NCBI RefSeq assembly: GCF_988243305.1
Contig: NZ_OZ547136.1
Reading direction: 5' to 3' (one strand)
DNA: 64,000 nt
Of the stretch, positions 13,482-50,834 are shown piece after piece. The position numbers and the translations under genes are program-made. Numbering within the stretch: position 1 is the stretch's first letter; each line of letters begins with the position of its first letter. A model generated the notes under the pieces. That model searched no databases, was not told the DNA's origin, and saw only the letters and a program-made list of their open reading frames with translations.

Positions 13482-13489
13482 TTCCAGAC

Positions 13490-13516
13490 GCGCCATCGTT
13501 AGATGGCGCTTTTTAT
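13490..13516 (+). terminator. rho-independent terminator after ydcL
   Basis: GCGCCATC-GTTA-GATGGCGC hairpin followed by TTTTT, 9 nt after ydcL stop. Confidence 0.7.
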
Positions 13517-17441: not shown

Positions 17442-17672
17442 TCAACGCTGTCCTGCTTCTGGTTTGCGCGATTTTTGCCAGTAAAAATGCTCGCGCAAAC
17501 CTTCCGCCGACTCTTCCGCCACAGCACGCAATTCATCGCTGTCCGCTTCATGACGCAGTTGATGATCCACATTCTTTACCCACACAAATTCATGTCCTTT
17601 GTGCCCTGCCATGAGTTGTCCTGAGAACAGCGCACACGTTAATAAGACAACCGATAACACCTTCGAAAACAT
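17442..17672 (-). CDS. yncJ: small secreted protein YncJ
   Basis: 76-aa ORF with N-terminal signal peptide MFSKVLSVVLLTCALFSGQLMA. Confidence 0.8.
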   Translation of the reverse strand: MFSKVLSVVLLTCALFSGQLMAGHKGHEFVWVKNVDHQLRHEADSDELRAVAEESAEGLREHFYWQKSRKPEAGQR

Positions 17673-17893
17673 CCCACCACCTTTTTCTGACCTTTTGCCG
17701 CTATGATGCCGATCGTTTCTTGAGGTTATTATTCAGTTTTGCAAATTAGCGCAAAGAAATTCTGGAATCTTCCTTCCTGATTTTGCATTGCATTCTGCCG
17801 TTGCGGCGATTTAGTGCTATTTTCGAGCACATTACACACGGAGGTAAACACTAATGTTTACTTTGTTGATATACTCAGCGGCAGGGAGGCGAT

Positions 17894-18070
17894 GTGAAAC
17901 AAAGCGAGTTCAGACGTTGGCTCGAATCTCAGGGCGTCGATGTAGCGAATGGCAGCAACCATTTAAAACTCAGGTTTCACGGGAGGCGCAGTGTCATGCC
18001 GCGTCACCCCTGCGATGAGATTAAAGAACCATTGCGTAAAGCAATCCTGAAACAACTCGGTTTGAGTTAA
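17894..18070 (+). CDS. hicA: HicA mRNA interferase toxin (58 aa, GTG start)
   Basis: Hand-translated ORF below table cutoff: (V/M)KQSEFRRWLESQGVDVANGSNHLKLRFHGRRSVMPRHPCDEIKEPLRKAILKQLGLS; GGAGG upstream; immediately precedes hicB. Confidence 0.88.
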   Translation: MKQSEFRRWLESQGVDVANGSNHLKLRFHGRRSVMPRHPCDEIKEPLRKAILKQLGLS

Positions 18071-18094
18071 TCGCCAATTAAAAAGGTTAATGAC

Positions 18095-18532
<438 letters not shown>

Positions 18533-18610
18533 TTACAGTTAACGAAAAGTTGTCATTTTTAACAACTGATATAGACTGCCGAATCATCTGCACATAATTA
18601 CGATTCGATA

Positions 18611-20017
18611 ATGAAAAAATACCAGCAGCTTGCAGAACAATTACGCGAGCAGATTGCGTCGGGTATCTGGCAACCCGGAGATCGTTTGCCTTCGTTGCGT
18701 GACCAGGTGGCGCTTTCTGGCATGAGCTTTATGACCGTGAGCCATGCCTATCAGTTGCTCGAAAGTCAGGGACATATTATCGCGCGACCGCAGTCGGGTT
18801 ATTACGTTGCGACACAGGCAATAAAAATGCCGAAAGCGCCAGTCATTCCTGTCACTCGAGATGAAGCAGTCGATATCAACACCTATATTTTTGATATGTT
18901 GCAGGCCAGTCGCGATCCGTCGGTAGTTCCGTTTGCCTCGGCCTTTCCCGACCCGCGACTTTTCCCCCTCCAACAACTAAACCGCTCGCTGGCGCAGGTA
19001 AGCAAAACCGCCACGGCGATGAGCGTGATTGAAAACTTACCGCCAGGAAACGCAGAACTGCGTCAGGCTATTGCTCGTCGCTATGCCTTACAGGGCATCA
19101 CTATTTCTCCTGATGAAATTGTCATTACCGCCGGGGCGTTAGAGGCATTAAACCTCAGTTTACAAGCGGTCACTGAACCGGGCGATTGGGTGATAGTAGA
19201 GAATCCTTGTTTCTACGGCGCGTTGCAGGCGCTGGAGCGGTTACGGCTGAAGGCGTTATCGGTGGCGACGGACGTTAAAGAAGGGATTGATCTCAAGGCG
19301 CTGGAACTGGCGTTGCAGGAGTATCCGGTGAAAGCGTGCTGGCTGATGACTAATAGCCAGAATCCACTCGGATTTACCTTAACGCCGCAGAAAAAAGCGC
19401 GGCTGGTAGCGTTGCTCAATCAGTACAACGTAACGCTGATTGAAGATGACGTTTACAGCGAACTTTATTTTGGACGGGAAAAACCGCTGCCTGCGAAAGC
19501 GTGGGATCACCACGATGGTGTTTTGCATTGCTCTTCGTTTTCGAAATATCTGGTGCCTGGTTTTCGTATTGGTTGGGTCGCCGCCGGAAAACATGCACGT
19601 AAAATTCAACGCTTGCAGTTGATGAGTACGCTTTCCACCAGCTCACCGATGCAGCTTGCACTGGTGGATTACCTTTCCACGCGCCGATACGACGCCCATC
19701 TTCGTCGCTTGCGTCGCCAGCTTGCGGAGCGTAAACAACGTGCCTGGCAGGCACTGCTGCGTTATCTGCCTGCGGAAGTGAAAATTCATCATAATGACAG
19801 CGGTTATTTTCTCTGGCTGGAACTCCCCGCGCCGTTAGATGCGGGCGAATTAAGCCTGGCGGCACTGACGCATCATATCAGTATTGCGCCGGGTAAAATG
19901 TTTTCTACCGGTGAAAACTGGTCACGTTTTTTCCGTTTTAATACCGCGTGGCAGTGGGGAGAACGTGAAGAACAGGCGGTTAAACAATTAGGCAAACTTA
20001 TTCAAGAACGGCTGTAA
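18611..20017 (+). CDS. ydcR: MocR/GntR-family regulator with aminotransferase-like domain
   Basis: 468-aa ORF; N-terminal winged HTH and PLP-fold C-terminal domain. Confidence 0.85.
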   Translation: MKKYQQLAEQLREQIASGIWQPGDRLPSLRDQVALSGMSFMTVSHAYQLLESQGHIIARPQSGYYVATQAIKMPKAPVIPVTRDEAVDINTYIFDMLQASRDPSVVPFASAFPDPRLFPLQQLNRSLAQVSKTATAMSVIENLPPGNAELRQAIARRYALQGITISPDEIVITAGALEALNLSLQAVTEPGDWVIVENPCFYGALQALERLRLKALSVATDVKEGIDLKALELALQEYPVKACWLMTNSQNPLGFTLTPQKKARLVALLNQYNVTLIEDDVYSELYFGREKPLPAKAWDHHDGVLHCSSFSKYLVPGFRIGWVAAGKHARKIQRLQLMSTLSTSSPMQLALVDYLSTRRYDAHLRRLRRQLAERKQRAWQALLRYLPAEVKIHHNDSGYFLWLELPAPLDAGELSLAALTHHISIAPGKMFSTGENWSRFFRFNTAWQWGEREEQAVKQLGKLIQERL

Positions 20018-27139: not shown

Positions 27140-27333
27140 TTTTGCCACCTTTTATCATTGCCCCTATGTGTATAGTACGGGTTAAGAAAATCCGCAATAA
27201 TACTCATTCTGAAGATGGATAAGGGCAAGTTGCTGTTTGATGATTTTTTCTCAAACTGGTGAAAAAACTTGATGCACGTCAAAAAATGACGCATATTTGC
27301 GCGCGTTTTATTCATCTGGCTGGACGCCCGTAC

Positions 27334-27507
27334 ATGTCTCTCTATCAACACATGCTTGTTTTTTATGCGGTCATGGCAGCAATCGCATTTCTTATCACCT
27401 GGTTTCTTTCTCACGATAAGAAACGCATCCGTTTCTTAAGCGCCTTTCTGGTGGGGGCAACATGGCCGATGAGTTTCCCGGTGGCGCTGTTGTTTTCACT
27501 GTTTTAA
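27334..27507 (+). CDS. ortT: orphan toxin OrtT (57 aa)
   Basis: ORF call 27259 trimmed to internal ATG 27334: MSLYQHMLVFYAVMAAIAFLITWFLSHDKKRIRFLSAFLVGATWPMSFPVALLFSLF. Confidence 0.85.
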   Translation: MSLYQHMLVFYAVMAAIAFLITWFLSHDKKRIRFLSAFLVGATWPMSFPVALLFSLF

Positions 27508-36191: not shown

Positions 36192-36809
36192 ATGATTAAG
36201 GTGTATGGCGTACCCGGATGGGGCTCTACAATCAGTGAGCTGATGCTAACACTGGCTGATATTCCTTATCAGTTCGTTGATGTCAGTGGTTTTGACCACG
36301 AGGGAACCTCACGCGAGTTATTGAAAACCCTGAACCCGTTGTGTCAGATTCCGACACTGGCGCTGGAAAATGACGAGATTATGACGGAGACAGCGGCGAT
36401 TGCATTGATGGTTCTCGATCGTCGCCCGGACCTTGCGCCACCGGTTGGGCGCGCCGAACGTCAGCAGTTTCAACGGCTATTGGTCTGGCTGGTTGCTAAT
36501 GTCTATCCAACATTCACTTTCGCCGATTACCCTGAGCGTTGGGCTCCTGACGCACCCGAACAGTTAAAGAATAATGTTATTGAATATCGTAAATCGCTTT
36601 ATATCTGGCTGAATTCACAATTGACCGCTGAACCTTATGCCTTTGGCGAGCAACTAACGCTGGTGGACTGTTATCTCTGCACCATGCGCACATGGGGGCC
36701 GGGGCATGAATGGTTTCACGATAATGCGCAGAATATCAGTGCGATTGCTGAAGCTGTATGTCAGTTACCGAAATTACAAGAAGTATTAAAAAGGAATGTC
36801 ATTATTTAA
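36192..36809 (+). CDS. yncG: glutathione S-transferase homologue
   Basis: 205-aa GST-fold ORF with AGGGG upstream. Confidence 0.85.
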   Translation: MIKVYGVPGWGSTISELMLTLADIPYQFVDVSGFDHEGTSRELLKTLNPLCQIPTLALENDEIMTETAAIALMVLDRRPDLAPPVGRAERQQFQRLLVWLVANVYPTFTFADYPERWAPDAPEQLKNNVIEYRKSLYIWLNSQLTAEPYAFGEQLTLVDCYLCTMRTWGPGHEWFHDNAQNISAIAEAVCQLPKLQEVLKRNVII

Positions 36810-37054
36810 CAATAATGCCGGAGGTTAATGTTAATGAATCACTGGCGTAATTAACTGGATATCCATTTGTTTGCTATGAATAGTAATTAAAGTTGGTACA
36901 ACTATTTATATGATTGATGTAATTTCGTTTTTTATATGAAATATCAATTTAATATAATCCGAAAATAAAACATCTTTTCGCATGTAGAGAAACATGTCGA
37001 TATGATAGTGCAGTGCAGATCATGTCATCAGGGTAGGGCGGTAGCGTATTTAAT

Positions 37055-37210
37055 CAGGGAAAGATTACGCAACGCTGCTTTTTTGTATTGAACGATTCGC
37101 ATTTTATGTTTAAAAATTGCGATATTCCTTATTTCCTGAAGCTGTTTTTATTGCTTATACATGATCAAATACTCCTTACATAATTAAGGAGAACAAAATG
37201 GAACTTAATA
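37055..37210 (+). repeat. 5'-terminal remnant of an H-repeat (ISAs1-family) element
   Basis: About 155 bp near-identical to the left ends of the elements at 42289 and 46943, including the terminal inverted repeat CAGGGAAAGATTACG and the first 4 codons of the transposase (ATGGAACTTAA), then divergence. Confidence 0.8.
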
Positions 37211-37348
37211 CACGCCAACAATTTGTATTACTTAAATAGACCAGTGAAGGTACGCATCAGAACATCCGGTGAAGTGATTAATATTTCGTTGAATATTTCT
37301 CCCGATTTTTGAAACCTGCTGCTGTAGAAATTCTGAACAGGAGGAATT

Positions 37349-37633
37349 ATGCCTTTAGCAGCCAAACTCACCGACAAAGGCACCCAGCACGACGGTTATT
37401 ACGAGACCGTCATCACCGCCGGGTCATCCACCGTCTTTATCGATGGTCTTCCCGCAGCCCGTCAGGGAGATCCGCTGACGCCGCATGCTAAACCGAAGCA
37501 TCCCCCTCATCCCCGTAAAATCGCCAGAGGTTCTTCAACCGTCTTTATTGACGGCCTGCCCGCCGCCAGAAGCGGTGATGCTGTTGACTGCGGCGGCGTG
37601 GTTATTGGTGGCGGTACGGTAAATATAGGCTGA
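37349..37633 (+). CDS. PAAR-domain protein (T6SS spike tip)
   Basis: 94-aa ORF with repeated GSSTVFIDGLPAARxGD motifs (PAAR motif); strong AGGAGG RBS; 18 nt upstream of vgrG. Confidence 0.85.
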   Translation: MPLAAKLTDKGTQHDGYYETVITAGSSTVFIDGLPAARQGDPLTPHAKPKHPPHPRKIARGSSTVFIDGLPAARSGDAVDCGGVVIGGGTVNIG

Positions 37634-37651
37634 TATGTCTGAGAGGTATTT

Positions 37652-39616
37652 ATGTCCTTAAAAGGTCTTCGCTTTACGCTGGAGGTTGACGGCCAGGAGC
37701 CGGACACCTTTGCAGTGGTGAATTTCAGGTTAATCCAGAACCAGTCATATCCGTTTGTGATGAGTGTGGATGTTGCCAGCGACTCTTTTATGCAGACGGC
37801 GGAGATGCTGCTGGAGAAGAAGGCGACACTGACCATCTGGCAGGGCGCAGTGGCGCAGCGTTATGTCACCGGCGTGGTGGCGGGTTTTGGCATGCAGGAG
37901 AATAACGGCTGGCAGATGCGTTATCACCTGCGTATTGAGCCGCCGTTATGGCGGTGCGGGCTGCGGCAGAACTTTCGTATCTTCCAGCAGCAGGATATCC
38001 GGACGATATCGGCCACGTTACTGAACGAGAACGGCGTCACGGAGTGGACGCCGCTGTTTTATGAGGACCATCCGGCGCGGGAGTTCTGTGTCCAGTACGG
38101 AGAGAGCGACCTGGCGTTTCTGTCCCGGCTGTGGGCGGAGGAGGGAATTTTCTTCTTTGAGCGGTTTGCGGCGGACAGTCCGGAGCAGAAGCTGACGCTG
38201 TGCGACGATGTGGCGGGGCTGTCACAGGCGGGGGAGTTTCCGTTTAACCCGGACACATCGGCAGGAGCGGAGACGGAGTGTGTCAGTATGTTCCGTTATG
38301 AGGCGCATGTCCGCCCGTCATCGGTGCAGAGCCAGGATTACACGTTTAAGGTGCCGGACTGGCCGGGGATGTATGAGCAGCAGGGTGAGAACCTGAACGG
38401 ACAGCTGGCGCAGTATGAGATATTTGATTATCCGGGAAGGTACAAGGATGAACAGCACGGCAAGGATTTCACGCTGTACCGGATGGAGAGCCTGCGCAGT
38501 GATGCGGAAAAGGCCACAGGGCAGAGTAATTCACCGAAGCTGTGGCCGGGAACGCGGTTTACGCTGACGGGGCATCCGCAGAAGATGCTGAACCGTGAAT
38601 GGCAGGTGGTACAGAGCATACTGTCAGGAAGCCAGCCGCAGGCGCTGCACGGCAGCCAGGGGAGAGGAACCACGCTGGGCAATCAGTTAGAGGTGATACC
38701 GGCGGACCGGACGTGGCGTCCACGGCTGCAAAGCAAACCGAAGGTGGACGGGCCACAGAGCGCCATTGTCACCGGTCCTGCGGGAGAGGAAATCTTCTGC
38801 GACGAACACGGACGTGTGCGAGTGCAGTTTCACTGGGACAGGTATAACCCGGCAACGGAGGCGAGTTCGTGCTGGGTGAGGGTGTCACAGGCGTGGGCGG
38901 GGCCGGGGTTCGGTAACCTGGCGATACCGCGGGTGGGCCAGGAGGTGATTGTTGATTTCCTGAACGGCGACCCGGACCAGCCGATAATCATGGGACGGAC
39001 ATACCATGAGGACAACCGTTCACCGGGGAGTCTGCCGGGGACGAAGACGCAGATGACGATACGGTCGAAGACCTATAAAGGTAGCGGATTTAACGAGCTG
39101 CGGTTTGAAGACGCCACCAGTAATGAGCAGGTGTATATCCATGCGCAGAAGAACATGGATACGGAGGTGCTCAACGACCGGACAACGGATGTGAAACATG
39201 ACCATACGGAAACCATCGGTAACAACCAGAAGATAACGGTGGTGAAGGGCCAGACGGTGAATGTGGGGAGCAAAAAGGAAGGTGGTCATGACCAGAAAGT
39301 GACAGTGGCGAATGACCAGACCATTACGGTACAAAACGATCAGCGGCTGGATGTTACCCACGATCGTCACAAGGATGTAGGGAACGATCAAATCAGTAAG
39401 ATAATAGGAAAAGATACCGAAGAAGTCGTGAAATCCCAGGATATTAAAGTTGGAGAAGATTACAGCCTGACAGTTACCAACAGCCTCACCATTAAAGTCG
39501 GTGAATGCTTACTGAAAATGAATAAGGACGGTACTATCATTCTCAATGGTAAAAGTATCCAGATTGAAGGAAAAGATAAAATCAATATTTTCGGCGCAGA
39601 TATTGATCTGGATTAA
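37652..39616 (+). CDS. vgrG: VgrG spike protein (T6SS)
   Basis: 654-aa ORF; characteristic VgrG N-terminus (MSLKGLRFTLEVDG...FAVVNFRL...) and C-terminal Val/Gly-rich beta-helical repeats (VKGQTVNVG..., TVQNDQRLDV...). Confidence 0.9.
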   Translation: MSLKGLRFTLEVDGQEPDTFAVVNFRLIQNQSYPFVMSVDVASDSFMQTAEMLLEKKATLTIWQGAVAQRYVTGVVAGFGMQENNGWQMRYHLRIEPPLWRCGLRQNFRIFQQQDIRTISATLLNENGVTEWTPLFYEDHPAREFCVQYGESDLAFLSRLWAEEGIFFFERFAADSPEQKLTLCDDVAGLSQAGEFPFNPDTSAGAETECVSMFRYEAHVRPSSVQSQDYTFKVPDWPGMYEQQGENLNGQLAQYEIFDYPGRYKDEQHGKDFTLYRMESLRSDAEKATGQSNSPKLWPGTRFTLTGHPQKMLNREWQVVQSILSGSQPQALHGSQGRGTTLGNQLEVIPADRTWRPRLQSKPKVDGPQSAIVTGPAGEEIFCDEHGRVRVQFHWDRYNPATEASSCWVRVSQAWAGPGFGNLAIPRVGQEVIVDFLNGDPDQPIIMGRTYHEDNRSPGSLPGTKTQMTIRSKTYKGSGFNELRFEDATSNEQVYIHAQKNMDTEVLNDRTTDVKHDHTETIGNNQKITVVKGQTVNVGSKKEGGHDQKVTVANDQTITVQNDQRLDVTHDRHKDVGNDQISKIIGKDTEEVVKSQDIKVGEDYSLTVTNSLTIKVGECLLKMNKDGTIILNGKSIQIEGKDKINIFGADIDLD

Positions 39617-39631
39617 TCTGGAGAAATTAAC

Positions 39632-40573
39632 ATGAATATTGAAAATGAAACTGGTTTTCCTCACTTTCAGTTCGAAAAAGTGGGATATTATGGTGAGTTA
39701 TTCACAGTAGTGGTAGTTAATCAGACATTTGATTTTTCATATAGCGGCGGTCTCTGTCTGATTGCGGATGAGCAGCGACTGCCACTGATGACCGACTCCT
39801 GGTACGGCGAACCGGAAAGCAGCAGTCTTAAAACAGCAACCGATTTGGTTTGCAGAAAAGTCAGGGCAGATGTTTTATTAAATGGACACGCATGGCATGC
39901 CACCGGGGAAACCACTCGATGGCAGGCCAGTTTACAGGTGGGTAATCTTCAGCGCCAATTTGATATATGTGGCCCTTGCCAATGGCAATATATATCTAAC
40001 CGCTGGCAACTTAGCGAACCTGAATTAACTGATCGGGTACTGTTACGCCATGAACTGGCGTCAGCCAGTGAATTTAATCCTGTAGGCATTGTTATTCCCT
40101 CCCTGATAACGCTTGGCGATAAATCGCCCTGTCCAGCTCCACAGTTATCTGCCTCACCAGGAGCTATTTGCCGTAGCTGGCCTTCACGATTGCGCTATGC
40201 CAGAGGTTTTACAGAACAGTGGCAAAAGACTGTTCAACCTTTTTATCCAGATGAATTCGATTTTGCATTCATGAATTATTCTCCACCAGAACAACAATAC
40301 GATGGTTATTTAATTGGCAATGAAAAAATTATATTGAACGGCCTGTTACCTTCTAAAATGGAACAAACTTGTTTCCTTCCAGATATTAGACTATTGGCGT
40401 ATTTGTTTTACCGCTCTGATAAAAACGTAGAACTGCGCCCATTGTTGGCTGACACACTGACCATCCACACAGACGATGAGCAACTAACACTACTCTGGCG
40501 CTTAACGCTCCCCGTGGATTCTCTTCCACAACGTATTGTTTTGACGACGGAGCAGAGGGGACCTCATGGCTGA
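39632..40573 (+). CDS. candidate T6SS adaptor/chaperone (DUF2169-like by position and size)
   Basis: 313-aa ORF between vgrG and a PAAR-like effector, overlapping the effector start by 8 nt; family assignment rests on synteny, not on a recognised motif. Confidence 0.5.
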   Translation: MNIENETGFPHFQFEKVGYYGELFTVVVVNQTFDFSYSGGLCLIADEQRLPLMTDSWYGEPESSSLKTATDLVCRKVRADVLLNGHAWHATGETTRWQASLQVGNLQRQFDICGPCQWQYISNRWQLSEPELTDRVLLRHELASASEFNPVGIVIPSLITLGDKSPCPAPQLSASPGAICRSWPSRLRYARGFTEQWQKTVQPFYPDEFDFAFMNYSPPEQQYDGYLIGNEKIILNGLLPSKMEQTCFLPDIRLLAYLFYRSDKNVELRPLLADTLTIHTDDEQLTLLWRLTLPVDSLPQRIVLTTEQRGPHG

Positions 40574-41699
40574 AAATCATATTGGTTGTCGTGAATCGAA
40601 GTACGTTGCGATATGTATTGCGCCTGATGTCTGCAAGGTTGGTGATGCGATAGTGCCGTTTGACAGCTTTCAGAACCTGACACATGAGAAAATTTATATC
40701 AGCAATGTCAGGGCACGGGGCAATCCAATACTGACCGTGGACTGTATTATTGCAGGTACACGAAGTAATGCCGGGAAAGGTGTCAGTTCTGGCACCAGTC
40801 TGGGCAGCGGTGACTGCCGGATACTGACAGGCGTGGATCATATAAAGTGCAAGGGAAAGCCGGTAGCCAGGAATCTTTCGCTGGTTGCCATGAATAATGA
40901 TAATACTGTTGGAAAACTGTATACCCAGACAAACCCGCCAAATCAGATAATACCTGTTAAAGAATCATCGCTTTGGGCCAAGTATCTGGAACTGCAAATA
41001 CAACAGCAAGAGTTTGAGCTTGAGTCCAAAAAGCAAGAAGCAGATGCAATGATAGGATTAGGCAAGGCATTTATTAATGGCTGGTATATGTTGGGTGCAT
41101 TGATTGCCAAAGGTCAGATGCAAAATGACATTGCCCAAATGGAAAGTAATATTGCTCTGGCGAGAGGGTTGGGGATGGATACCCAAATTATGGAGCGGGC
41201 GAATGAGACCAACAGGGAGGTAATGGAAACTATTGATCCTAGAGAGCCATTGTTGAAACCTGCCAATGAAACCCAAGCAATGGCGATGGAGGTTGAGCCA
41301 TGGCTGGAACTTATGACCGGGGTTGGAGCACTGGTGAAAGGTTTGGTCAAGTTTTCAGCGAAGTTTGCAATAAAATCGGTTGGCAGAATGGGGAGGAGCG
41401 GTGCTAAAATTGTGCTGGATGCAAATGGATTGCCTATTCCTGTTCCTCCAAGCGTTGGCGCTGCGGGAAGAGTTCCGAGAGTATTACAAACTGGAGGTAA
41501 TACTCTTGAGGCAAGAACTGCCAGGGAGTTAAATGAATTTTTTGGTAAAAATATTAACAGGAGAGAATGGGGGAAAGCTTTAGAAAAGTTGAAAAAAGAT
41601 TTACGCTTACGAGGTGATCACCATGGTCGAATACTTGATAATGGTGATTATATTGATGACTCAGGAAATATTTTAGGAAACATAGAAGATTATTTATGA
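40566..41699 (+). CDS. candidate T6SS effector with N-terminal PAAR-like (DUF4150-type) domain and unassigned C-terminal domain
   Basis: 377-aa ORF; N-terminal Cys-containing module (VAICIAPDVCKVGDAIVPF...GKPVARNLSLVAMNNDNTVG); helical linker; divergent C-terminal ~110 aa; AT-rich. Confidence 0.6.
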   Translation: MAENHIGCRESKYVAICIAPDVCKVGDAIVPFDSFQNLTHEKIYISNVRARGNPILTVDCIIAGTRSNAGKGVSSGTSLGSGDCRILTGVDHIKCKGKPVARNLSLVAMNNDNTVGKLYTQTNPPNQIIPVKESSLWAKYLELQIQQQEFELESKKQEADAMIGLGKAFINGWYMLGALIAKGQMQNDIAQMESNIALARGLGMDTQIMERANETNREVMETIDPREPLLKPANETQAMAMEVEPWLELMTGVGALVKGLVKFSAKFAIKSVGRMGRSGAKIVLDANGLPIPVPPSVGAAGRVPRVLQTGGNTLEARTARELNEFFGKNINRREWGKALEKLKKDLRLRGDHHGRILDNGDYIDDSGNILGNIEDYL

Positions 41700-42175
41700 T
41701 TAAGAATATACAATCAAGGCTTACCCCGATATCTCATGAATATCCAAGTTGTGATGAGTGCTATGCTAGCCTCTTGATTTACACAGGTAATACTCACCCT
41801 AATGAAATAAGTATTCACTTAGAACTTGAGCCAACATCAATTAATATAAAAGGAGATGAAATTATTACTCTATCGGGAAAGAAAAGATATGCAAAAAATT
41901 CATATTGGATGCTCTCGTCAGAAAATCTAGTGAACTCGAAAGATATTCGAGAACATCTGGATTGGCTACTTCACAAACTTGGACCTAAATCATCAAATAT
42001 TGCAAAATTGCAAGCATTAGAAAATATTTCAATGGGTATTGACTGTACCTGGAGATCATTGAATTGGCACGGTGGGCCAACTTTATGGCCTGAGCAGATG
42101 AAAATAATGGCTAATCTTGGATTGGAGTGTTCATTTGATATTTATTTCGTCGGCAATGAAGATGGCAATCTTTAA
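41696..42175 (+). CDS. candidate cognate immunity protein (cytoplasmic)
   Basis: 159-aa ORF, ATGA overlap with effector stop, no signal peptide, AT-rich; role inferred from position only. Confidence 0.45.
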   Translation: MIKNIQSRLTPISHEYPSCDECYASLLIYTGNTHPNEISIHLELEPTSINIKGDEIITLSGKKRYAKNSYWMLSSENLVNSKDIREHLDWLLHKLGPKSSNIAKLQALENISMGIDCTWRSLNWHGGPTLWPEQMKIMANLGLECSFDIYFVGNEDGNL

Positions 42176-42288
42176 TTATTGCTCGCAAATTTTTAATAAA
42201 CAAATAGCACAATAAAATACTCGGTATCTATGGTATATACCTAATAAACAAGGGCAGGGAAAGATCATCAGAAGTACACTTTTTGTAC

Positions 42289-43580
42289 CAGGGAAAGATC
42301 ACGTAACGCTGCTTTTTTGTACTAAATAATTCGCATTTTATGTTTAAAAATTGAGATATTCCTCATTACCTGAAGCTGTTTTTTATTGAGTATACATGAT
42401 CAAATACTCCTTACATAATTAAGGAGAACACAATGGAACTTAAAAAATTGATGGAACATATTTCTATTATCCCCGATTACAGACAAGCCTGGAAAGTGGA
42501 GCATAAATTGTCGGATATTCTACTGTTGACTATTTGTGCCGTTATTTCTGGTGCAGAAGGCTGGGAAGATATAGAGGATTTTGGGGAAACACATCTCGAT
42601 TTTTTAAAACAATACGGTTATTTTGAAAATGGTATTCCTGTTCACGATACCATCGCCAGAGTTGTATCCTGTATCAGTCCTGCAAAATTTCACGAGTGCT
42701 TTATTAACTGGATGCGAGATTGCCATACTTCAGATGATAAAGACGTCATCACAATTGATGGAAAAACGCTCCGGCACTCTTATGACAAGAGTCGCCGCAG
42801 GGGAGCGATTCATGTCATTAGTGCGTTCTCAACAATGCACAGCCTGGTCATCGGACAGATCAAGACGGATGAGAAATCCAATGAGATTACAGCTATCCCA
42901 GAACTTCTTAACATGCTGGATATTAAAGGAAAAATCATCACAACTGATGCGATGGGTTGCCAGAAAGATATTGCAGAGAAGATACAAAAACAGGGAGGTG
43001 ATTATTTATTCGCTGTAAAAGGAAACCAGGGGCGGCTAAATAAAGCCTTCGAGGAAAAATTTCCGCTGAAAGAATTAAATAATCCAGAGCATGACAGTTA
43101 CGCAATTAGTGAAAAGAGTCACGGCAGAGAAGAAATCCGTCTTCACATTGTTTGCGATGTCCCTGATGAACTTATTGATTTCACGTTTGAATGGAAAGGT
43201 CTGAAGAAATTATGCGTGACAGTCTCCTTTCGGTCAATAATAGCAGAACAAAAGAAAGAGCCAGAAATGACGGTCAGATATTATATCAGTTCTGCTGATT
43301 TAACCGCAGAGAAGTTCGCCACAGCAATCCGAAACCACTGGCACGTGGAGAATAAGCTGCACTGGCGTCTGGACGTGGTAATGAATGAAGACGACTGCAA
43401 AATAAGAAGAGGAAATGCCGCAGAATTATTTTCAGGGATACGGCACATCGCTATTAATATTTTAACGAATGATAAGGTATTCAAGGCAGGGTTAAGATGT
43501 AAGATGCGAAAAGCAGCCATGGACAGAAACTACCTGGCGTCAGTCCTTGCTGGGAGCGGGCTTTCGTAATCTTGCCCTGG
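42289..43580 (+). mobile_element. H-repeat element (ISAs1-family), intact copy
   Basis: About 1.3 kb bounded by imperfect terminal inverted repeats (left CCAGGGAAAGATCACG, right CGTAATCTTGCCCTGG) enclosing one 378-aa transposase ORF. Confidence 0.8.
42433..43569 (+). CDS. H-repeat-associated protein / ISAs1-family transposase (YdcC/YhhI-like)
   Basis: 378-aa [35 protein letters not shown]... matching recalled E. coli H-repeat proteins. Confidence 0.88.
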
Positions 43581-43916
43581 CAGGAGCATAAGACGACGGG
43601 GAACCATGTCAGCCTGGTGGAGGGAAAGCACAGTCTGGAGGTGAAAGGCGATCTGGCGAGGAAGGTGAGTGGCACGCTGGGGATAAAGGTGGACGGGGAT
43701 ATCGTGCTGGAGAGCTGCAGCCGGATAAGCCTGAAGGTGGGCGGTTCGTTTATCGTTATTCAGTCGGGCGGTGTGGATATAGTGGGGCCGAAGATAAATC
43801 TTAATGGTGGGGGGAGTCCGGGGACACCGGTACCGACACTGCAACCCACTGTCCTGAACACTTTAGTCACTAATGATACGGATAGTAATACTGATGATGA
43901 TATCGGTAATGATTAG
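43581..43916 (+). pseudogene. vgrG 3'-terminal remnant
   Basis: GC-rich frame encoding a VgrG C-terminal beta-helix tail (VSLVEGKHSLEVKGDLARKVSGTLGIKVDGDIVLES...GGVDIVGPKINLNGGGSPG) begins directly at the H-repeat right end with no ATG; table call uses a TTG inside the IR. Confidence 0.8.
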
Positions 43917-44087
43917 ACCAGAGTGAAGTTCATGTTCTCGTAGCGGGATAATCATTCAGATAAAGATAACGGATGACGGTAGTAATAATAATACAATAAT
44001 ACTGTGATTTTCTGCTTTCTAAGCAGAGATGCTCTGTGAATGAATAATTCATACTCGTTACATGTTTTATAATCTTAATAAGGACTA

Positions 44088-46166
44088 TTGATAATGATAA
44101 TCAGCCCTCCAATATTGCATGCGCATATAGACACTGAAAAAGACTCTGACTGGGTAAACAGAATGATGTCTGTTGATCCAGAGAGAAATTTCCCAATGAA
44201 TAGCGGTCGTTCTTGGCATGGTGGAGTTCATTTGAACGGCAATCTGTCAGAGACTGTTAGGTGTATTGCCGATGGGAAGGTTATTTCAATACGCCAGCCA
44301 GAACCAGCGAAAAATACAGTTCCCCCGTTAAATTATAACGGAGTTACGGATAAAGGCTATGTTCTGATAAAACATGAAACAGAAATCGGTAGTGGAGAAG
44401 AGGGTAAAATCGTCTATTACTCATTATATATGCACCTGAGAAGCATTGACAGTAATGTGCAGCCGGGAAACACGCTATACCGGAAAGAACCGGTTGGTGC
44501 AGCAGGGATGGTGGACGGACAGAACGCCTTTCATTTTCAGATTTTTTGTGATGATGAAAACATTCAGAAAATCACAGGAAGAATATCACCGGAAACAGAC
44601 CTGAATAAAGATGGACGAACTAATGTGGTTTACGGTGATAGTCATTTTTATCTCCCTACCGGAACACCGATTTATGGGGACATGCCGGAAGAAAACTCGC
44701 TTGCGAACAACAGTCCGGTACAAAGAACCAGCGTGCCATTGTATGTCACAATGAGTTTTGATAAAGGCAATTGTACGATGGTGACGCGTCAGCAGCATGA
44801 AGTGCTGAGTGATTCCTATACTGAAGTAGGTTCTCCCTTGATTAATGCTGATGGTAAGGATTATGAATACAATCTCTATTCCTACGCGCTGCAACTCTAT
44901 CCGAAAAGCCCAAGTGCCGGTTATGAGATGCTGCGTTTTGGTCGGGTTGTTAATACAGAATATGAAGAATTAGTCCCGGCGGATGCGCCGCTGTGGAGAA
45001 CAATCAATACGCCACAGGGTAAAGGCGTTGTTAACTTAGGGGCGAGAGATATCAGGGTTTACAGCGACGGTGATTTTCCACACTGGACAGGGTGGAAACT
45101 GGTGAACGATGATGCGGACACCAACAGCCAGTGCAATTCACCAACAATCCTGTGTACAACCCGCAATGACCTAAGTCGGATGATTTGTCATTTTCCGCTA
45201 GAATGGGACAGCGCCACCGTGGAATCACGGTTTGAGTGGCTGAAATCACCCAATGACGTATTGAGTAAGCCGATGACAGAGCCTGACCTGGATTTGCTGA
45301 TAGAACACTGTAAGGCGCTTTGTTTGGTAGAGAATCCGTTACCTGCCAGGCGTGTATGGCATTTTGATCCCAGGCAGTTTATTGCACATTTCAGGAAATG
45401 TGGATGGTTAGGAGAAAATGATATTATAAGTGTGGTAAGACGTTATCAAAATGCTTATCCCATGACATCAGAACTTACAAGACCATTAAGTAAAGACACT
45501 CTAATTGAGCGGATTACTAGCCAAGGACAAAATAGCAGTGGTGAGATGATAAGACCTGCAGGGTTGAAAAATGAACTGTCAAAGTCACTAAGGAAGTACT
45601 TAATTACAACCCCATTGCGGATTGCGCATTATTTCGGTCAGATGGCGAGAGAAACAGGCAGATTTTCGTCTTTTATAGAGAATGGTGATTTGAGTTATTT
45701 TGATATGTATGAGCCAGGAACAGAACAGGGACTTAAGCTTGGAAATAATGTTGTTGGTGATGGTGCAAGATTTAAAGGCAGAGGTACCATACATCTAACT
45801 GGTCGTGAGAATTATAGAAATTATGGAAAGTATAGAAATCCGTCAGATGATGATTTTTTTACTACAGGACCCAATAACCAACTCCCAGTTGAAAATGCCT
45901 ATTTTTCTTGCGATGCCGGGGGATACTTTTGGGCAAGTAAGCAAAAATACATAATGGTAAGCCATCGATTGACACCTAGTGGTAGTTTAGGCGTTAATTA
46001 TTGGGCGGATAAAGGATGTAGTTTGTCACATGCCAGAGAAGTTACACGGCGAATAAACCCAGCAGCAGATGGCTTCGATTTAGTACGTTGGCCAGCATTT
46101 GAGCATTCTTGGTATGTATTGAATGATGAAATAACACCTCCACTTAATTACATAAGGATTGTTTAA
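44088..46166 (+). CDS. predicted two-domain peptidoglycan hydrolase: M23/LytM-like N-terminal domain plus GH19-like (lysozyme/chitinase-family) C-terminal domain; candidate T6SS cargo effector
   Basis: 692-aa AT-rich ORF. N-terminal region follows the M23 motif order (WHGGVHL, ADGKVISI, GYVLIKHE, YYSLYMHL, NAFHFQIF). C-terminal region carries GH19 hallmarks (YFGQMARETGRF and KGRGTIHLTGRENYRNYG). Start codon uncertain. Confidence 0.6.
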   Translation: MIMIISPPILHAHIDTEKDSDWVNRMMSVDPERNFPMNSGRSWHGGVHLNGNLSETVRCIADGKVISIRQPEPAKNTVPPLNYNGVTDKGYVLIKHETEIGSGEEGKIVYYSLYMHLRSIDSNVQPGNTLYRKEPVGAAGMVDGQNAFHFQIFCDDENIQKITGRISPETDLNKDGRTNVVYGDSHFYLPTGTPIYGDMPEENSLANNSPVQRTSVPLYVTMSFDKGNCTMVTRQQHEVLSDSYTEVGSPLINADGKDYEYNLYSYALQLYPKSPSAGYEMLRFGRVVNTEYEELVPADAPLWRTINTPQGKGVVNLGARDIRVYSDGDFPHWTGWKLVNDDADTNSQCNSPTILCTTRNDLSRMICHFPLEWDSATVESRFEWLKSPNDVLSKPMTEPDLDLLIEHCKALCLVENPLPARRVWHFDPRQFIAHFRKCGWLGENDIISVVRRYQNAYPMTSELTRPLSKDTLIERITSQGQNSSGEMIRPAGLKNELSKSLRKYLITTPLRIAHYFGQMARETGRFSSFIENGDLSYFDMYEPGTEQGLKLGNNVVGDGARFKGRGTIHLTGRENYRNYGKYRNPSDDDFFTTGPNNQLPVENAYFSCDAGGYFWASKQKYIMVSHRLTPSGSLGVNYWADKGCSLSHAREVTRRINPAADGFDLVRWPAFEHSWYVLNDEITPPLNYIRIV

Positions 46167-46170
46167 AACA

Positions 46171-46674
46171 ATGAATTTTAAAAAAACAATAATCACTTCG
46201 GTAGGTTTGATATTTATTTCATTCTCTTTTGTGGCAGAGTGCTCTCAACTCAAAAATTTGAATAATTACTCAGTGATGCTTTGTGGAAAAGTGTCAAGTA
46301 ATATCCTTGATGATATTGGTGGTTATAAAGAAAGAGATAAAAAATCCGAAATGGTAGATTTACTTATATTAATTAGTAATGACGAGCCTATCGGTGTTTC
46401 TGAGACCAAAGTGATTTCTAATGGTAAAATATATTTTAAGGGGGAAAGTACTATGAACTTGGATGCCTCATTCATTATGACAATAAATGGTGGAGTTCAT
46501 ACTGACACTGTCACTTATATATCAAAGAAGAATAAAATTATCGGGGGCTACTTTTATAATAATGAGAGTAAAACTGATAAGCTTAAGGAAGTATATATCT
46601 CAAACACAGGAACTGTATATCATATAAATATTGAAAGTGTCAGCGATGATAAATGTCTTGATAAATTTAAGTAA
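46171..46674 (+). CDS. candidate periplasmic immunity protein (signal peptide)
   Basis: 167-aa ORF from ATG 46171 (MNFKKTIITSVGLIFISFSFVAECSQ...), 4 nt after the hydrolase stop; cleavable Sec-type signal; very AT-rich. Confidence 0.45.
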   Translation: MNFKKTIITSVGLIFISFSFVAECSQLKNLNNYSVMLCGKVSSNILDDIGGYKERDKKSEMVDLLILISNDEPIGVSETKVISNGKIYFKGESTMNLDASFIMTINGGVHTDTVTYISKKNKIIGGYFYNNESKTDKLKEVYISNTGTVYHINIESVSDDKCLDKFK

Positions 46675-46942
46675 CGATAAGGCAAGGATGATTGATTGGG
46701 TTTAGTTAAGTTTCGAGAACAAATTTCCGCGGCAGAGAGTATAAATGTAGGGGCAAGAATGCTAAAATCGTGAAGTGCACCACAACTATAATTCCAGTTT
46801 ACTTTGTTTATTTGATTGTAATTTAACCATTAAATGATTAGGTTTTTTAGAAAAGGACGTCTGATGAATGTTTAAATTAATTTTGAATACATTTCAATTA
46901 TTTTGTTGTATGTTGGCAAGGTCAAATAAGACATAATTTAAT

Positions 46943-47645
46943 GGCAGGGAAAGATCATCGTAAGTACACTTTTTGTACTAAATAATTTGCATTTTATGTT
47001 TAAAAATTGAGATATTCCTCATCACCTGAAGCTGTTTTTTATTACTTATATATGATCAAATACTCCTTACATAAATAAGGAGAACAAAATGGAACTTAAA
47101 AAATTGATGGAACATATTTCTATTATCCCCGATTACAGACAAGCCTGGAAAGTGGAACATAAATTATCGGATATTCTACTGTTGACTATTTGTGCTGTTA
47201 TTTCTGGTGCAGAAGGATGGGAAGATATAGAGGATTTTGGGGAAACACATCTCGATTTTTTGAAGCAATATTGTGATTTTGATAATGGTATTCCTGTTCA
47301 CGATACCATTGCCAGAGTTGTATCCTGTATCAGTCCTGAAAAATTTCATGAGTGCTTTATTAACTGGATGCTTGACTGCCATTCTTCAGATGATAAAGAC
47401 GTCATTGCAATTGATGGAAAAACGCTCCGGTACTCTTATGACAAGAGTCGTCGCAAGGGAGCGATTCACGTTATTAGTGTGTTCTCAATAATGCACAGTC
47501 AGATTCCTTGGAAGATCAAGACGAATGAAAAAAACAATGAGATTACAGCTGTTTCTGAATTTCTTAACATAATGGGTATTAAAGGAAAAATAATTGCACC
47601 GATCCAATGTGATACCAGAAAGACATCGCTAAGAAGATAGCTATA
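46943..47645 (+). mobile_element. H-repeat element, 3'-truncated and degenerate copy
   Basis: Left end and first ~550 bp of transposase gene near-identical to the intact copy, then frameshifted (..[20 protein letters not shown]) and lost about 50 nt upstream of the cyclase gene 3' end. Confidence 0.8.
47089..47640 (+). pseudogene. truncated H-repeat transposase
   Basis: 183-aa ORF identical in N-terminus to the 378-aa transposase but terminating early after indels. Confidence 0.8.
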
Positions 47646-47713
47646 GACAATTATTACCCTCCGTCAGCCCTTGTTAAGCGAGGAGAGACGTAATCTGTCC
47701 AGTCCCCTAATGC

Positions 47714-48811
47714 TTATAAAGCCCATCGATTTCGCCCACTTTCTTTCGCCCGGTATAACGCAGCGTCGGCATCTGAAATAATTTGTTCAGCCGTTTTTGC
47801 GGGAGCAGAACAGGTAATCCCCTGACTAACCGTAACGAATGCATTAACAGCAGATGCCTGATGTGGGATAGCTGCCAGTTTAAGTTCTTGCTTCACTCTG
47901 GCTGCTACCGTCTTTGCTTCCGGCAATGTTGCATTAAAAAGTATGATGGCAAACTCTTCGCCACCATAACGGACAACAACATCCTCCGACTGGCGAGTTG
48001 AACGCTGTAGAGCGTCGGCAACTTGTATTAGACAACGATCCCCAGCAGGATGCCCGTAAGTGTCGTTGTAACGTTTAAAAAAATCGACATCCAGCATAAT
48101 AAGAGCAAATGACCCGCCGTTATCCATCGCGTCGTGTAAGATACTGTTCATTGCACGTCGGTTTGCTATCCCAGTTAAAGGATCACGATGTGCTAATGCA
48201 TCAAGGCGATTAATTAACTGGTTGTTATAACTGTTTTGTACCCATGCTTCTTCAAACCAACGTAACAAAATGAGTCGCCCACCATATAGCGCCAGTGAAA
48301 AAATACACCATACAACAGCAAAATGAATATTGATCTGTTGATTAAGCATAAGACTCGCTATTGGAGTGGTGAACCATAAGGGAATGACAAATGCGAGCAA
48401 TGATGGGGTATGGAAATAAAGTGCGACAACGCCACTAAGCATTAATAATACACATAGTGGATAAGCAAACTGCAGCGTCCAGTACGCAATAAAGTGATAA
48501 CTACACCATGACCATAGCAGGCTCAGGGCAACTAATAGCACCTGGATAGGTAATGTTTTTTGCCGAGGGATGAGTAGTAAACCACTGCAAATCAGCAGAA
48601 TACCCGTTGCAGATATATCAATAGAATGTATAAGGCTTTTTTCATTTAACCAGGGTGGAGTAAGGTCATTAAACAGAACACGGCGCAGCAAAATTATCAA
48701 TGCAAAACTGACATTGATAAAAGCAAACCATGGCAAACTAATTGTCATGCCGCGGATAACCATATCGCGGCGTGTTTGCCACGAGTGATGCGTTTTTCTT
48801 CTTTCAGCCAT
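47714..48811 (-). CDS. membrane-anchored diguanylate cyclase (GGDEF domain)
   Basis: 365-aa ORF: N-terminal multi-TM region and C-terminal GGDEF domain with intact RYGGEEF active-site motif; start codon not resolved. Confidence 0.8.
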   Translation of the reverse strand: MAERRKTHHSWQTRRDMVIRGMTISLPWFAFINVSFALIILLRRVLFNDLTPPWLNEKSLIHSIDISATGILLICSGLLLIPRQKTLPIQVLLVALSLLWSWCSYHFIAYWTLQFAYPLCVLLMLSGVVALYFHTPSLLAFVIPLWFTTPIASLMLNQQINIHFAVVWCIFSLALYGGRLILLRWFEEAWVQNSYNNQLINRLDALAHRDPLTGIANRRAMNSILHDAMDNGGSFALIMLDVDFFKRYNDTYGHPAGDRCLIQVADALQRSTRQSEDVVVRYGGEEFAIILFNATLPEAKTVAARVKQELKLAAIPHQASAVNAFVTVSQGITCSAPAKTAEQIISDADAALYRAKESGRNRWAL

Positions 48812-48857: not shown

Positions 48858-50834
48858 TTATGGTGTCACTATATTGAACCAAAATTCAAAATTATCCATA
48901 TAACCTAACAGCTCGTTGAGCTTTTCCGCATTGCCGGTAATTTTGACATCACCTTTGTCCGTGGCTTCTTTCAGCGTCTCTTCTTTCAGTACAATTTTGT
49001 TCAATACATCACGAGATAGAGAGATAGTGGCATCAGCCTCCGAAGCCTCTACACCAGCGGTATGATTGAGAACACCATTTTCAAGCTCTACCTTATAGGT
49101 GCCGCCATCTTCACCAAAATCGAAATTCAACACGGCTTTGGCATCTGCCGCTTTCTCACCATTAATATGGACGGCAAGATAATCAAAGAACATTTCTGGC
49201 GTCATTGCACGCACAGTGTCAGGGCTGGCAGTATTTGGTGTTGGTAATTTTTGTACGCCGTTACGCAATTCCTGTGCACCAGTGAGATAGAAATTACGCC
49301 ACGGCCCAGATTCAGCCTGATAGCCTAACTGCTCAAGCGCATCAGCTTCCAGATTTCTCGCTGCCTGGTTGTTTGGATCCGCAAACACCACCTTACTAAC
49401 AACTTGGGCAACCCAGCGGAAATTACCCTGGTCATAATCCTGTTTGGCTTTCTGTAAAATGGCATCAGCACCGCCCATATACTCGACGAATTTTTTTGCG
49501 CCTTCTTCTGGCGGTAGTTCATCAAGCGTCGCGGGGTTACCATCAAACCAGCCGAGATAAAGCACGTAAGTTGCTTTCACGTCATGACTTACCGAACCGT
49601 AATAGCCGCGATTCGCCCAGGTGTTAGCCAGTGAAGAGGGCAGTTTAAAGTTTGCGGCAATTTCATCACGGGTCATCCCTTGATTAGCCATGCGCAGAGT
49701 TTGATCATTGATGTAACGATACAAATCACGCTGGCTTTTAAGCAGTTTGACCACGTTATCGTTGCCCCAGGTTGGCCAGTGATGTTGAGCGAGAATAATC
49801 TCGGCTTTATCACCCCACAAATTGAGAGCTTCATTAATATATTTTGACCACGGCAGCGGTTGGCGAATTTTAGCCCCACGCAGCGAATAGGTGTTATGAA
49901 GGGTGTGCGTGACATCTTCAGCGGTTTCGATCAGTTTCTTTTCTTCAATAAACCACAGCATTTCAGAAGGCGCTTCAGAACCTGGCGCCATCAGGAAATC
50001 ATAAGTCAACCCGTCAATAGTTTCTTTTTGTCCGGTTTTGGTGATGTAGTTAGTAGGAGCAATCAACGTGACTGTTCCTGCTGAAGTAGTCGTTCCCAGT
50101 CCAGCCCCCACCTGGCCTTTAACATCAGGTTTCAATAAGTTGCCATACATATAACTGGCTCGTCGGCTCATCACATTGCCAGCCATAATATTTTCGGAAA
50201 CGGCTTCCTCCAAAAATCCGGCTGGCGCATAGATTTTAACTTTGCCTGATTTAACGTCAGCTTCATCAATTACGCCACGAACACCACCGTAGTGATCGAC
50301 ATGACTGTGTGTATAGATAACCGCCACTACCGGTTTTTTGCCGCGATTTTTGTAATAGAGATCCATACCCACTTTGGCTGTTTCTGCTGAAACAAGGGGA
50401 TCAACGACGGTAATACCCTCTTTGCCTTCAATGATGGTCATATTTGATAGATCGAGATTGCGAATCTGATAGACACCTTCAGTTACTTCGAATAACCCGC
50501 TGATATTTATCAGTTGCGCCTGACGCCATAAACTCGGATTCACCGTATCAGGGGCTTTATCGCCTTCTTTGATAAAAGCGTAATGTTGTGGATCCCAGAT
50601 AACATTCCCTTGTTCGCCCTTAATCACGTCTTGAGGGATAGGGGCAATAAAACCTTTATGGGCATCAGTAAAGTCAGTGTTATCGGCAAACGGCAACTGG
50701 TTGGAGAGTAAATTGTTTGCTTGTTGCGTGGCTGCGGTGGCGTCTTTAGGAGCTTCCGCCGCGAGGAGAGGTAAAGAACTGGTGGTGAATAATCCCGTTA
50801 TTAGCAGACTTTTAACGATATGATTAAGCTGCAT
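48858..50834 (-). CDS. alkyl/aryl-sulfatase, metallo-beta-lactamase fold (YjcS/SdsA1-like)
   Basis: 658-aa ORF with signal peptide (MQLNHIVKSLLITGLFTTSSLPLLAA) and MBL metal-binding motif THSHVDHYGG. Confidence 0.8.
   Translation of the reverse strand: MQLNHIVKSLLITGLFTTSSLPLLAAEAPKDATAATQQANNLLSNQLPFADNTDFTDAHKGFIAPIPQDVIKGEQGNVIWDPQHYAFIKEGDKAPDTVNPSLWRQAQLINISGLFEVTEGVYQIRNLDLSNMTIIEGKEGITVVDPLVSAETAKVGMDLYYKNRGKKPVVAVIYTHSHVDHYGGVRGVIDEADVKSGKVKIYAPAGFLEEAVSENIMAGNVMSRRASYMYGNLLKPDVKGQVGAGLGTTTSAGTVTLIAPTNYITKTGQKETIDGLTYDFLMAPGSEAPSEMLWFIEEKKLIETAEDVTHTLHNTYSLRGAKIRQPLPWSKYINEALNLWGDKAEIILAQHHWPTWGNDNVVKLLKSQRDLYRYINDQTLRMANQGMTRDEIAANFKLPSSLANTWANRGYYGSVSHDVKATYVLYLGWFDGNPATLDELPPEEGAKKFVEYMGGADAILQKAKQDYDQGNFRWVAQVVSKVVFADPNNQAARNLEADALEQLGYQAESGPWRNFYLTGAQELRNGVQKLPTPNTASPDTVRAMTPEMFFDYLAVHINGEKAADAKAVLNFDFGEDGGTYKVELENGVLNHTAGVEASEADATISLSRDVLNKIVLKEETLKEATDKGDVKITGNAEKLNELLGYMDNFEFWFNIVTP

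Follow-up and report, generated by a model that had tools for sequence, protein, structure and literature searches.

A probable auxiliary type VI secretion cargo module of Escherichia coli carries a small uncharacterised toxin domain paired with a DUF4279 protein

Sequential displacement of effector-immunity modules is known from the auxiliary clusters of Vibrio cholerae and from the orphan tips of Rhs and CdiA proteins. In Agrobacterium tumefaciens, a module is reportedly arranged in the order vgrG2-DUF2169 (Atu3641)-Tde2-Tdi2, in which the C-terminus of VgrG is said to set cargo specificity and Tde2 to carry an Ntox15 DNase domain. The related Agrobacterium strain 1D1609 is the subject of a separate report (PMC6971182). 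A vgrG gene followed by a DUF2169 gene and the gene of a DUF4150 effector defines synteny type B, for example V. parahaemolyticus VP1415, while P. aeruginosa Tse7 was placed in synteny type A (Sachar et al. 2025, PMC11883445). Here, a five-gene operon in a 64,000-nucleotide (nt) stretch of E. coli DNA (assembly GCF_988243305.1, contig NZ_OZ547136.1; the whole stretch is called the window) is compared with these systems. The operon very probably represents an auxiliary (orphan) cargo module of a type VI secretion system (T6SS), of the vgrG-DUF2169-DUF4150 type and with a canonical PAAR gene in front.

The operon resembles synteny type B in its gene order, in the three families, in the single-domain DUF2169 protein, in an effector with an N-terminal DUF4150/PIPY domain and a C-terminal toxin, and in the downstream immunity gene. 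Unlike type B, it has a canonical PAAR gene upstream of vgrG, an IVPF motif, and an unrelated toxin domain. Likewise, the Agrobacterium Tde2 locus shares VgrG, the DUF2169 adaptor, the DUF4150-toxin, and the immunity protein in the same order, but it carries Ntox15 where the window has an unclassified ~80-aa (amino acid) domain, and it belongs to a main cluster whereas the window locus is an orphan. The operon is of an ordinary, already-annotated E. coli T6SS kind (tip, spike, chaperone, toxin, antidote), and its only apparently new part is the small uncharacterised toxin domain.

A sequence-only reading of the window had described five co-directional open reading frames (ORFs) encoding proteins of 94, 654, 313, 377, and 159 aa. 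Every checkable detail of their coordinates, sizes, gaps, and overlaps was reproduced; the coordinates place 18 nt and 15 nt between the first three genes, and the last three overlap by 8 nt and 4 nt in turn. A profile hidden Markov model (HMM) check gave significant matches to PAAR, VgrG, DUF2169, DUF4150, and DUF4279 families, one per protein. The five ORFs are real genes and not chance ORFs because the E-values of these matches span 1e-10 to 1e-182. Furthermore, the names that RefSeq gives to the orthologous genes in other strains are the same family assignments. The contrast noticed by eye between a GC-rich vgrG and AT-rich cargo genes was borne out by measurement, with a GC content of 0.55–0.62 across vgrG versus 0.34–0.47 across the cargo genes. 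Promoter and terminator scans gave no meaningful margin over shuffled controls. Taken together, the earlier interpretation of the locus is supported.

The first gene encodes a PAAR spike-tip protein, whose repeated motifs had been noted and which matches NF033420 over its full length (156.5 bits, cutoff 124). It is identical at 89 of 93 residues (96%) to chain D of PDB 4jiw, an entry presumably representing the PAAR protein c1882 of strain CFT073. c1882 has been named as the CFT073 PAAR (PMC10715212), and extra vgrG copies have been noted in the yncG..yddH region (GR11) of extraintestinal pathogenic E. coli (PMC12928451). These reports concern the same yncG-proximal island and a closely similar PAAR, but the DUF2169-effector-DUF4279 cargo is not described there. 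The second gene encodes VgrG, as had been proposed from an N-terminal signature; the protein scores 606 bits against TIGR03361 (cutoff 186) and has the Pfam domains Phage_GPD (residues 34–328), Phage_base_V (385–451), and Gp5_trimer_C, the gp5 beta-helix (468–617).

The 313-aa protein, earlier called an adaptor, is a DUF2169 protein (PF09937, E 1.7e-49), with residues 25–290 covering model positions 6–294 of 294 and with a weak match to the solved DUF2169 structure 8vth. The location of its gene between vgrG and the DUF4150 gene is what defines synteny type B (PMC11883445). The 377-aa protein is the effector. The PAAR-like module seen at its N-terminus was recovered as a match to Tox-PAAR-like/DUF4150 (PF13665, E 2.7e-10, residues 16–116), and a PAAR motif was not found in its sequence. 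The position of the PIPY motif, which in the family reads P(I/V)P(Y/F), reads A-I-V-P-F in the effector; the last three positions fit, and a paralogue from a T6SS-1 cluster reads KVPF. In the linker that follows, no segment reaches a hydrophobicity of transmembrane level.

Effector residues 1–252, which comprise the tip domain and a helical linker, align with residues 2–271 of a Salmonella bongori Rhs effector (8qjc_A, E 1e-15), and no Rhs or YD model matched any of nine window proteins that were scanned for an Rhs core or YD repeats. The effector appears to resemble an Rhs effector only in this pre-core part, that is, in its N-terminal 252 residues. Unlike the S. bongori protein (A464_2174, PDB 8QJC), it lacks an Rhs cage and carries a different toxin. 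The S. bongori effectors TseV1-4 (PMC9635880) also combine a PAAR-like domain with a small toxin, but the toxin of the window is not VRR-Nuc.

The predicted toxin consists of only the last ~72–82 residues of the effector. An exhaustive search with the last 126 effector residues yielded homologues that cluster into 350 representatives at 50% identity. Among the 150 representatives listed, nearly all match only over the last ~75–80 residues and end a few residues from the C-terminus. The carrier proteins span 65–3822 aa and include Rhs, SpvB/TcdB-Rhs, DUF637 (CdiA-like), Hint/intein, pre-toxin TG, and DUF4150 proteins as well as a giant eCIS_core+ART protein. An extreme C-terminal placement on such diverse carriers is the signature of a polymorphic-toxin domain. 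The start of the domain was set at VLQTGG (residue 306) because in several homologues the domain begins directly after a Hint-type "VHN" motif. The effector domain shows the pattern VLQTGGN...REWGxALExLK...HHGxI..NGDY...GN..DYL, in which Q308, K343, and H353 are invariant and R333, W335, E340, and Y362 are among the near-invariant residues. The domain in the window is 100% identical to that in UniProt S1PJA8.

The last gene had been proposed to encode an immunity protein without a signal peptide. Its product belongs to DUF4279 (PF14106, E 2.1e-18), a family described as immunity proteins of polymorphic toxins, and has no hydrophobic N-terminus (maximum Kyte-Doolittle 0.33). The target of the toxin is expected to be cytoplasmic because the DUF4279 protein lacks a signal peptide. 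DUF4279 has been described as the ferredoxin-like immunity family FdL-Imm5, which is CdiI-like (PMC9424270), and as the partner of an Rhs toxin of the Ntox33 type in Salmonella (PMC13304343). Where a distantly related copy of the toxin domain sits on another carrier, a DUF4279 gene comes next after the toxin gene, mostly overlapping or abutting it, in seven of the seven informative loci; one further contig stopped directly after the toxin gene and lies outside these seven. In complete E. coli genomes, every toxin tip is accompanied by the immunity gene, and orphan immunity-only copies were not found. An AlphaFold2 (AF2) model of a toxin-linker-immunity fusion, computed from a block alignment, gave a predicted local distance difference test score (pLDDT) above 90 for both domains and an overall predicted template modelling score (pTM) of 0.59, a value that speaks neither for nor against direct binding.

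What does the toxin domain do? The AF2 model of the domain alone is confident (pLDDT 93.7), and a PDB fold neighbour of the model was not found. The domain has no match in Pfam, NCBIfam, or PADLOC, and relaxing the Pfam threshold to E <= 10 gave none either. When 72 aligned family members were compared with Pfam, a toxin family was not matched by any of them at E <= 0.1. Identity with Ntox33 was rejected, as the Pfam Ntox33 model does not match. A RelE/ParE-like (BECR) fold of the ribonuclease (RNase) type, suggested by the order of secondary-structure elements, was ruled out by hhalign. A PDB profile search matched the beta-alpha-alpha part to Arc repressor at chance level (E 0.06), which was not counted as evidence. 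As a tentative guess, with a chance well short of even, the toxin may be a small nuclease that does not depend on a metal, more probably an RNase, because of the invariant Gln, Lys, and His, the near-invariant Arg, Glu, and Tyr, and the DUF4279 associations. It is also possible, though somewhat more doubtful still, that the last ~72–82 residues found a widespread, undescribed polymorphic-toxin family, perhaps with a fold or activity new among interbacterial toxins, because the domain has no Pfam or NCBIfam model, no structural neighbour, and a DUF4279 partner at every examined locus. The searched literature contained no paper with the effector accession; searches on DUF4279, DUF2169/PAAR-like, DUF4150/orphan vgrG, and yncG/T6SS gave context only at the level of the family or locus.

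The operon lies between yncG and pptA. In K-12 MG1655, the same site reads yncG-yncH-rhsE(pseudogene)-ydcD-yncI(pseudogene)-ydcC-pptA, which agrees with the earlier placement of the operon where K-12 has its rhsE remnant. The only sequences that the module has in common with K-12 here are H-repeats. The complete H-repeat downstream of the operon, ISEc1, has an ISAs1 transposase (414 bits against NF033564), and its region is 95.8% identical to the K-12 ydcC region. The K-12 RhsE element (rhsE'-ydcD-H-rpt) is similar in its site, in its H-repeat, and in being a toxin-immunity locus of the T6SS/Rhs world, but unlike RhsE the window lacks both an Rhs core and YD repeats. The H-repeat sequence earlier reported on both flanks was located as a fragment to the left of the operon and as two copies to the right (Table 1). 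The left fragment is 91.6% identical to 42289–42443 and 85% identical to 46936–47099, and the truncated right-hand copy is 89.4% identical to 42289–42984. In strain Es_ST80, the homology of a second tandem PAAR-vgrG copy begins at window position 37206, where the left H-repeat fragment ends.

Comparison with other strains reveals a mosaic. A strain with only PAAR, VgrG, and an M23 peptidase at this site is homologous over 36800–39343 and then again over 43580–47476, so that homology to the M23-type vgrG stops at codon 564. Homology to vgrG genes ahead of other DUF2169 cargos reaches 39475 (aa 608). In other words, the 5' part of vgrG to about nt 39343–39475 is common to other E. coli vgrG genes, and the last 46–90 codons are specific to this cargo. 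These breakpoints define a constant part that runs from the H-repeat fragment through the PAAR gene into vgrG, of which it takes in about 560–600 codons. The variable part would then be the vgrG tail together with the chaperone, effector, and immunity genes. Alternative modules occupy the site in other strains, such as a second module of PAAR, VgrG, and an M35 peptidase, or differing first modules. Both the internal vgrG breakpoints and the finding that other strains have alternative cargos at this site fit the earlier view of a horizontally exchanged module.

The junction of yncG with the PAAR gene was found in 686 of 5426 complete E. coli genomes. The cargo of the window, with the toxin tip and the immunity gene together at identities of at least 99%, is found in 120 complete E. 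coli genomes, in which RefSeq has already annotated the architecture. Carriers of the cargo include the gut-associated strains LF82 and NC101. One copy, comprising effector tip and immunity gene, occurs at 13465–13941 of NZ_CP110997.1 (hit H83), a 33.7-kb record of non-mobilizable plasmid type from a human urine isolate. Either the pair was truly transferred, or a contig of the chromosome may have been assigned wrongly.

How is the spike launched? No T6SS core genes are present in the window according to the annotation of a colinear genome and an NCBIfam scan of the remaining large ORFs, as had been stated earlier for tssA-M, hcp, and clpV. Window positions 1–55604 are colinear with NZ_CP148331.1, and that stretch is annotated without tss, hcp, or clpV; the four large ORFs that remain are narH, narG, narU, and 62467–63720. 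The last of these is a minus-strand ORF of 417 aa that lies beyond narU; NCBIfam gave no match for it at E <= 1e-10.

NZ_CP148331.1 (locus L001) is the nearest complete genome, 99.8% identical to the window with 21 differences over 36800–47800. The T6SS-1 that this genome has at aspV is complete (tssB, C, E, F, G, tagH, tssJ, K, icmH/tssL, tssH, vasI, tssA, tssM, and two hcp genes). At the end of this cluster there is a paralogous PAAR-VgrG-DUF2169-PAAR-like module with ISAs1 remnants at its borders. Compared with the window module, its PAAR is 100% identical, its DUF2169 protein 32%, and its PIPY domain (residues 1–125) 54%; for VgrG the identity is 87%, with the first ~560–600 residues near-identical and most differences lying in the last ~90. 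LF82 has the window cargo at 99.4%, and its T6SS-1 is the same and ends in a module of the same kind. Both module-bearing genomes examined (2 of 2) therefore have a complete T6SS-1 at aspV. T6SS-1 is the likely launcher because NZ_CP148331.1 and LF82 carry the cargo together with a T6SS-1 that ends in a paralogous module; for the window's own genome, this is judged from its relatives. T6SS-2 was considered as a launcher in NZ_CP148331.1 and rejected, as it is absent at the metV/amiC site. As a separate observation, a 580-bp patch of vgrG (window 37975–38556) holds 17 of the 21 differences from NZ_CP148331.1. This suggests a possible gene conversion from a paralogous vgrG, for example from copies in T6SS-1 clusters.

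From published family work, three VgrG chains would form a spike on the T6SS-1 encoded elsewhere. Following PMC11883445, the DUF2169 protein most likely shields a hydrophobic patch of the effector's PIPY cone, which would then cap the beta-helix of VgrG, with one effector molecule per spike. Contraction of the sheath would drive the spike into a neighbouring Gram-negative cell, and the C-terminal ~72–82-residue domain would act in the cytoplasm of the target. The cytoplasmic DUF4279 protein would protect the producer and its sister cells. The delivery, intoxication, and protection steps are proposed from family membership and synteny. In the evolution of the locus, recombination in the conserved 5' part of vgrG and at H-repeats would bring in new cargo upstream and leave displaced remnants downstream. 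This is similar to the sequential displacement of other effector-immunity modules, in which new cargo enters by recombination in a conserved 5' part of a gene, and the former 3' end and its cargo persist downstream (here vgrG'-M23-immunity); unlike in those cases, a copy of ISEc1 sits at the junction in the window.

The operon thus illustrates how the E. coli T6SS may be re-armed, with a constant handle of PAAR and the vgrG 5' part, a swappable set of vgrG tail, chaperone, toxin, and antidote genes, and H-repeat borders. The principle of the scheme is not new, and such loci are already annotated by reference pipelines. The value of the operon lies in offering, in compact, intact, and readily testable form, a small toxin domain that is uncharacterised and has a conserved DUF4279 partner, a pair present in the well-studied strains LF82 and NC101.

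Several points weigh against the operon being a working T6SS cargo module with a nuclease toxin. The 64-kb window itself has no T6SS core gene, and the effector lacks the initial Pro of the PIPY motif (IVPF). The VgrG tip could also be taken by the canonical PAAR that the operon encodes, and DUF2169 genes are rarely near PAAR genes (PMC11883445). In NZ_CP148331.1, Glu334 of the effector is changed to a stop codon (G>T at window position 41565, NRR*WG, in the toxin domain) and the immunity gene is intact; the window copy of the effector is intact. The weapon appears dispensable in at least one lineage because of this E334* change in the nearest genome. Furthermore, the AF2 toxin-immunity fusion has no confident interface, no fold or profile match of the toxin domain to any nuclease was found, and data on expression, secretion, or toxicity of the effector were not found in the searched literature. 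With respect to the two tips, a PAAR and a PIPY effector around one VgrG would imply that either can tip the spike. Read most simply, the PAAR is part of a constant "handle" for all cargo types at this site and serves spikes without a PIPY effector. A canonical PAAR gene ahead of vgrG-DUF2169-PAAR-like is seen at the orphan site of the window and at the end of the T6SS-1 cluster (L008, 11675–16146; L018, 43476–48334). The operon is a natural case for studying competition between PAAR and PIPY tips on one VgrG.

Could the module be a decaying relic like K-12 rhsE, no longer fired and kept at most for its immunity gene? Debris of insertion sequences (IS) and H-repeats on both sides, a truncated vgrG immediately downstream, the toxin stop codon in the closest genome, IS insertions in the DUF2169 gene of other strains (rows H28 and H52), and an AT-rich upstream region without a promoter signal above background all point that way. 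However, all five frames of the window are intact and two of the junctions have overlaps of the translational-coupling kind, the cargo is conserved at 99% or more in 120 genomes, the toxin domain is the same as in S1PJA8 at every residue, and no immunity-only copies were found in E. coli. A relic is therefore unlikely. About half as likely as a relic is an effector that targets eukaryotic cells or plays a non-toxic part, with the 159-aa protein serving as a chaperone instead of an immunity protein. The strict conservation of a DUF4279 gene downstream of the toxin domain on very different carriers (7/7 loci) is a hallmark of toxin-immunity pairs, and DUF4279 has been described as an immunity family. 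These findings argue against a host-directed or non-toxic role, even though the gut-associated strains LF82 and NC101 carry the module and AF2 gave no confident complex for the fusion.

The farthest from the evidence is a spike outside the T6SS altogether, that is, a phage-tail or extracellular contractile injection system (eCIS) spike of the gp27/gp5/gp5.4 kind with its own cargo. VgrG and PAAR are homologous to gp27-gp5 and gp5.4 of phage T4, and an eCIS_core domain occurs in one distant protein that carries the toxin domain. However, the T6SS-specific NCBIfam equivalogs score far above their cutoffs, the window has no sheath, tube, baseplate, or phage genes, and the identical PAAR and a near-identical VgrG N-terminus occur inside a bona fide T6SS-1 cluster. 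This origin is extremely improbable. An auxiliary T6SS cargo module remains the best explanation of the operon.

Table 1. Features of the operon, its H-repeat borders, and the adjoining cargo remnants, in window coordinates
Feature	Position	Strand	Basis or remark
H-repeat (ISEc1/ISAs1-family) 5'-end fragment, 154 bp; left module boundary	37055..37208	+	
Canonical PAAR spike-tip protein, 94 aa	37349..37633	+	NF033420, two GLPAAR motifs
VgrG/TssI spike, 654 aa	37652..39616	+	TIGR03361 and Pfam architecture
DUF2169 protein, predicted chaperone/adaptor, 313 aa	39632..40573	+	PF09937; overlaps effector gene by 8 nt
Effector, whole gene, 377 aa	40566..41699	+	
Effector residues 1–125, DUF4150/PAAR-like/PIPY tip domain	40566..40940	+	PF13665
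Effector residues 126–295, helical linker, then Pro-rich pre-toxin stretch GLPIPVPPS	40941..41450	+	
Effector residues 296–377, predicted C-terminal toxin domain (core VLQTGGN...DYL, residues 306–377)	41451..41696	+	
DUF4279 protein, putative immunity protein, 159 aa, predicted cytoplasmic	41696..42175	+	PF14106; overlaps effector gene by 4 nt
Complete H-repeat ISEc1 (transposase 42433–43569), orthologous to K-12 ydcC	42289..43579	+	NF033564
3' remnant of second vgrG, cut off by ISEc1	43580..43916	+	
Displaced cargo, 690-aa effector candidate with M23 peptidase domain	44094..46166	+	RefSeq 'peptidase M23'
167-aa protein, hydrophobic N-terminus, putative periplasmic immunity to M23 effector	46171..46674	+	Position and sequence
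Truncated H-repeat copy, right island boundary	46945..47639	+	Partial ISAs1 transposase in near-identical genome

Directly after ISEc1 comes a second, displaced cargo module (window 43580–46674). Window positions 43580–47476 are 97.9% identical to the vgrG 3' end, the M23 gene, and the immunity gene of strain 1504D004. In other strains, the M23 module is preceded by a vgrG of full-length extent, annotated as frameshifted in 1504D004, and is the sole module at the site. The 690-aa protein of the window matches PF01551 (E 3e-4) at residues 44–157, and the 167-aa protein that follows has no family match.

Between the last H-repeat remnant and pptA, two further genes lie on the minus strand. One (47714–48811) encodes a diguanylate cyclase of the GGDEF type that also has a membrane sensor domain, and the other (48858–50834) a 658-aa protein annotated as an alkyl sulfatase. 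The K-12 site has neither of these genes, and ydcC abuts pptA there. Upstream of the island, the annotation of the colinear relative lists several small genes of toxin-antitoxin type, hicAB, ortT, and hokB (~17500–18700, ~27200–27400, and ~2100–2500), which are ordinary K-12-type genes.

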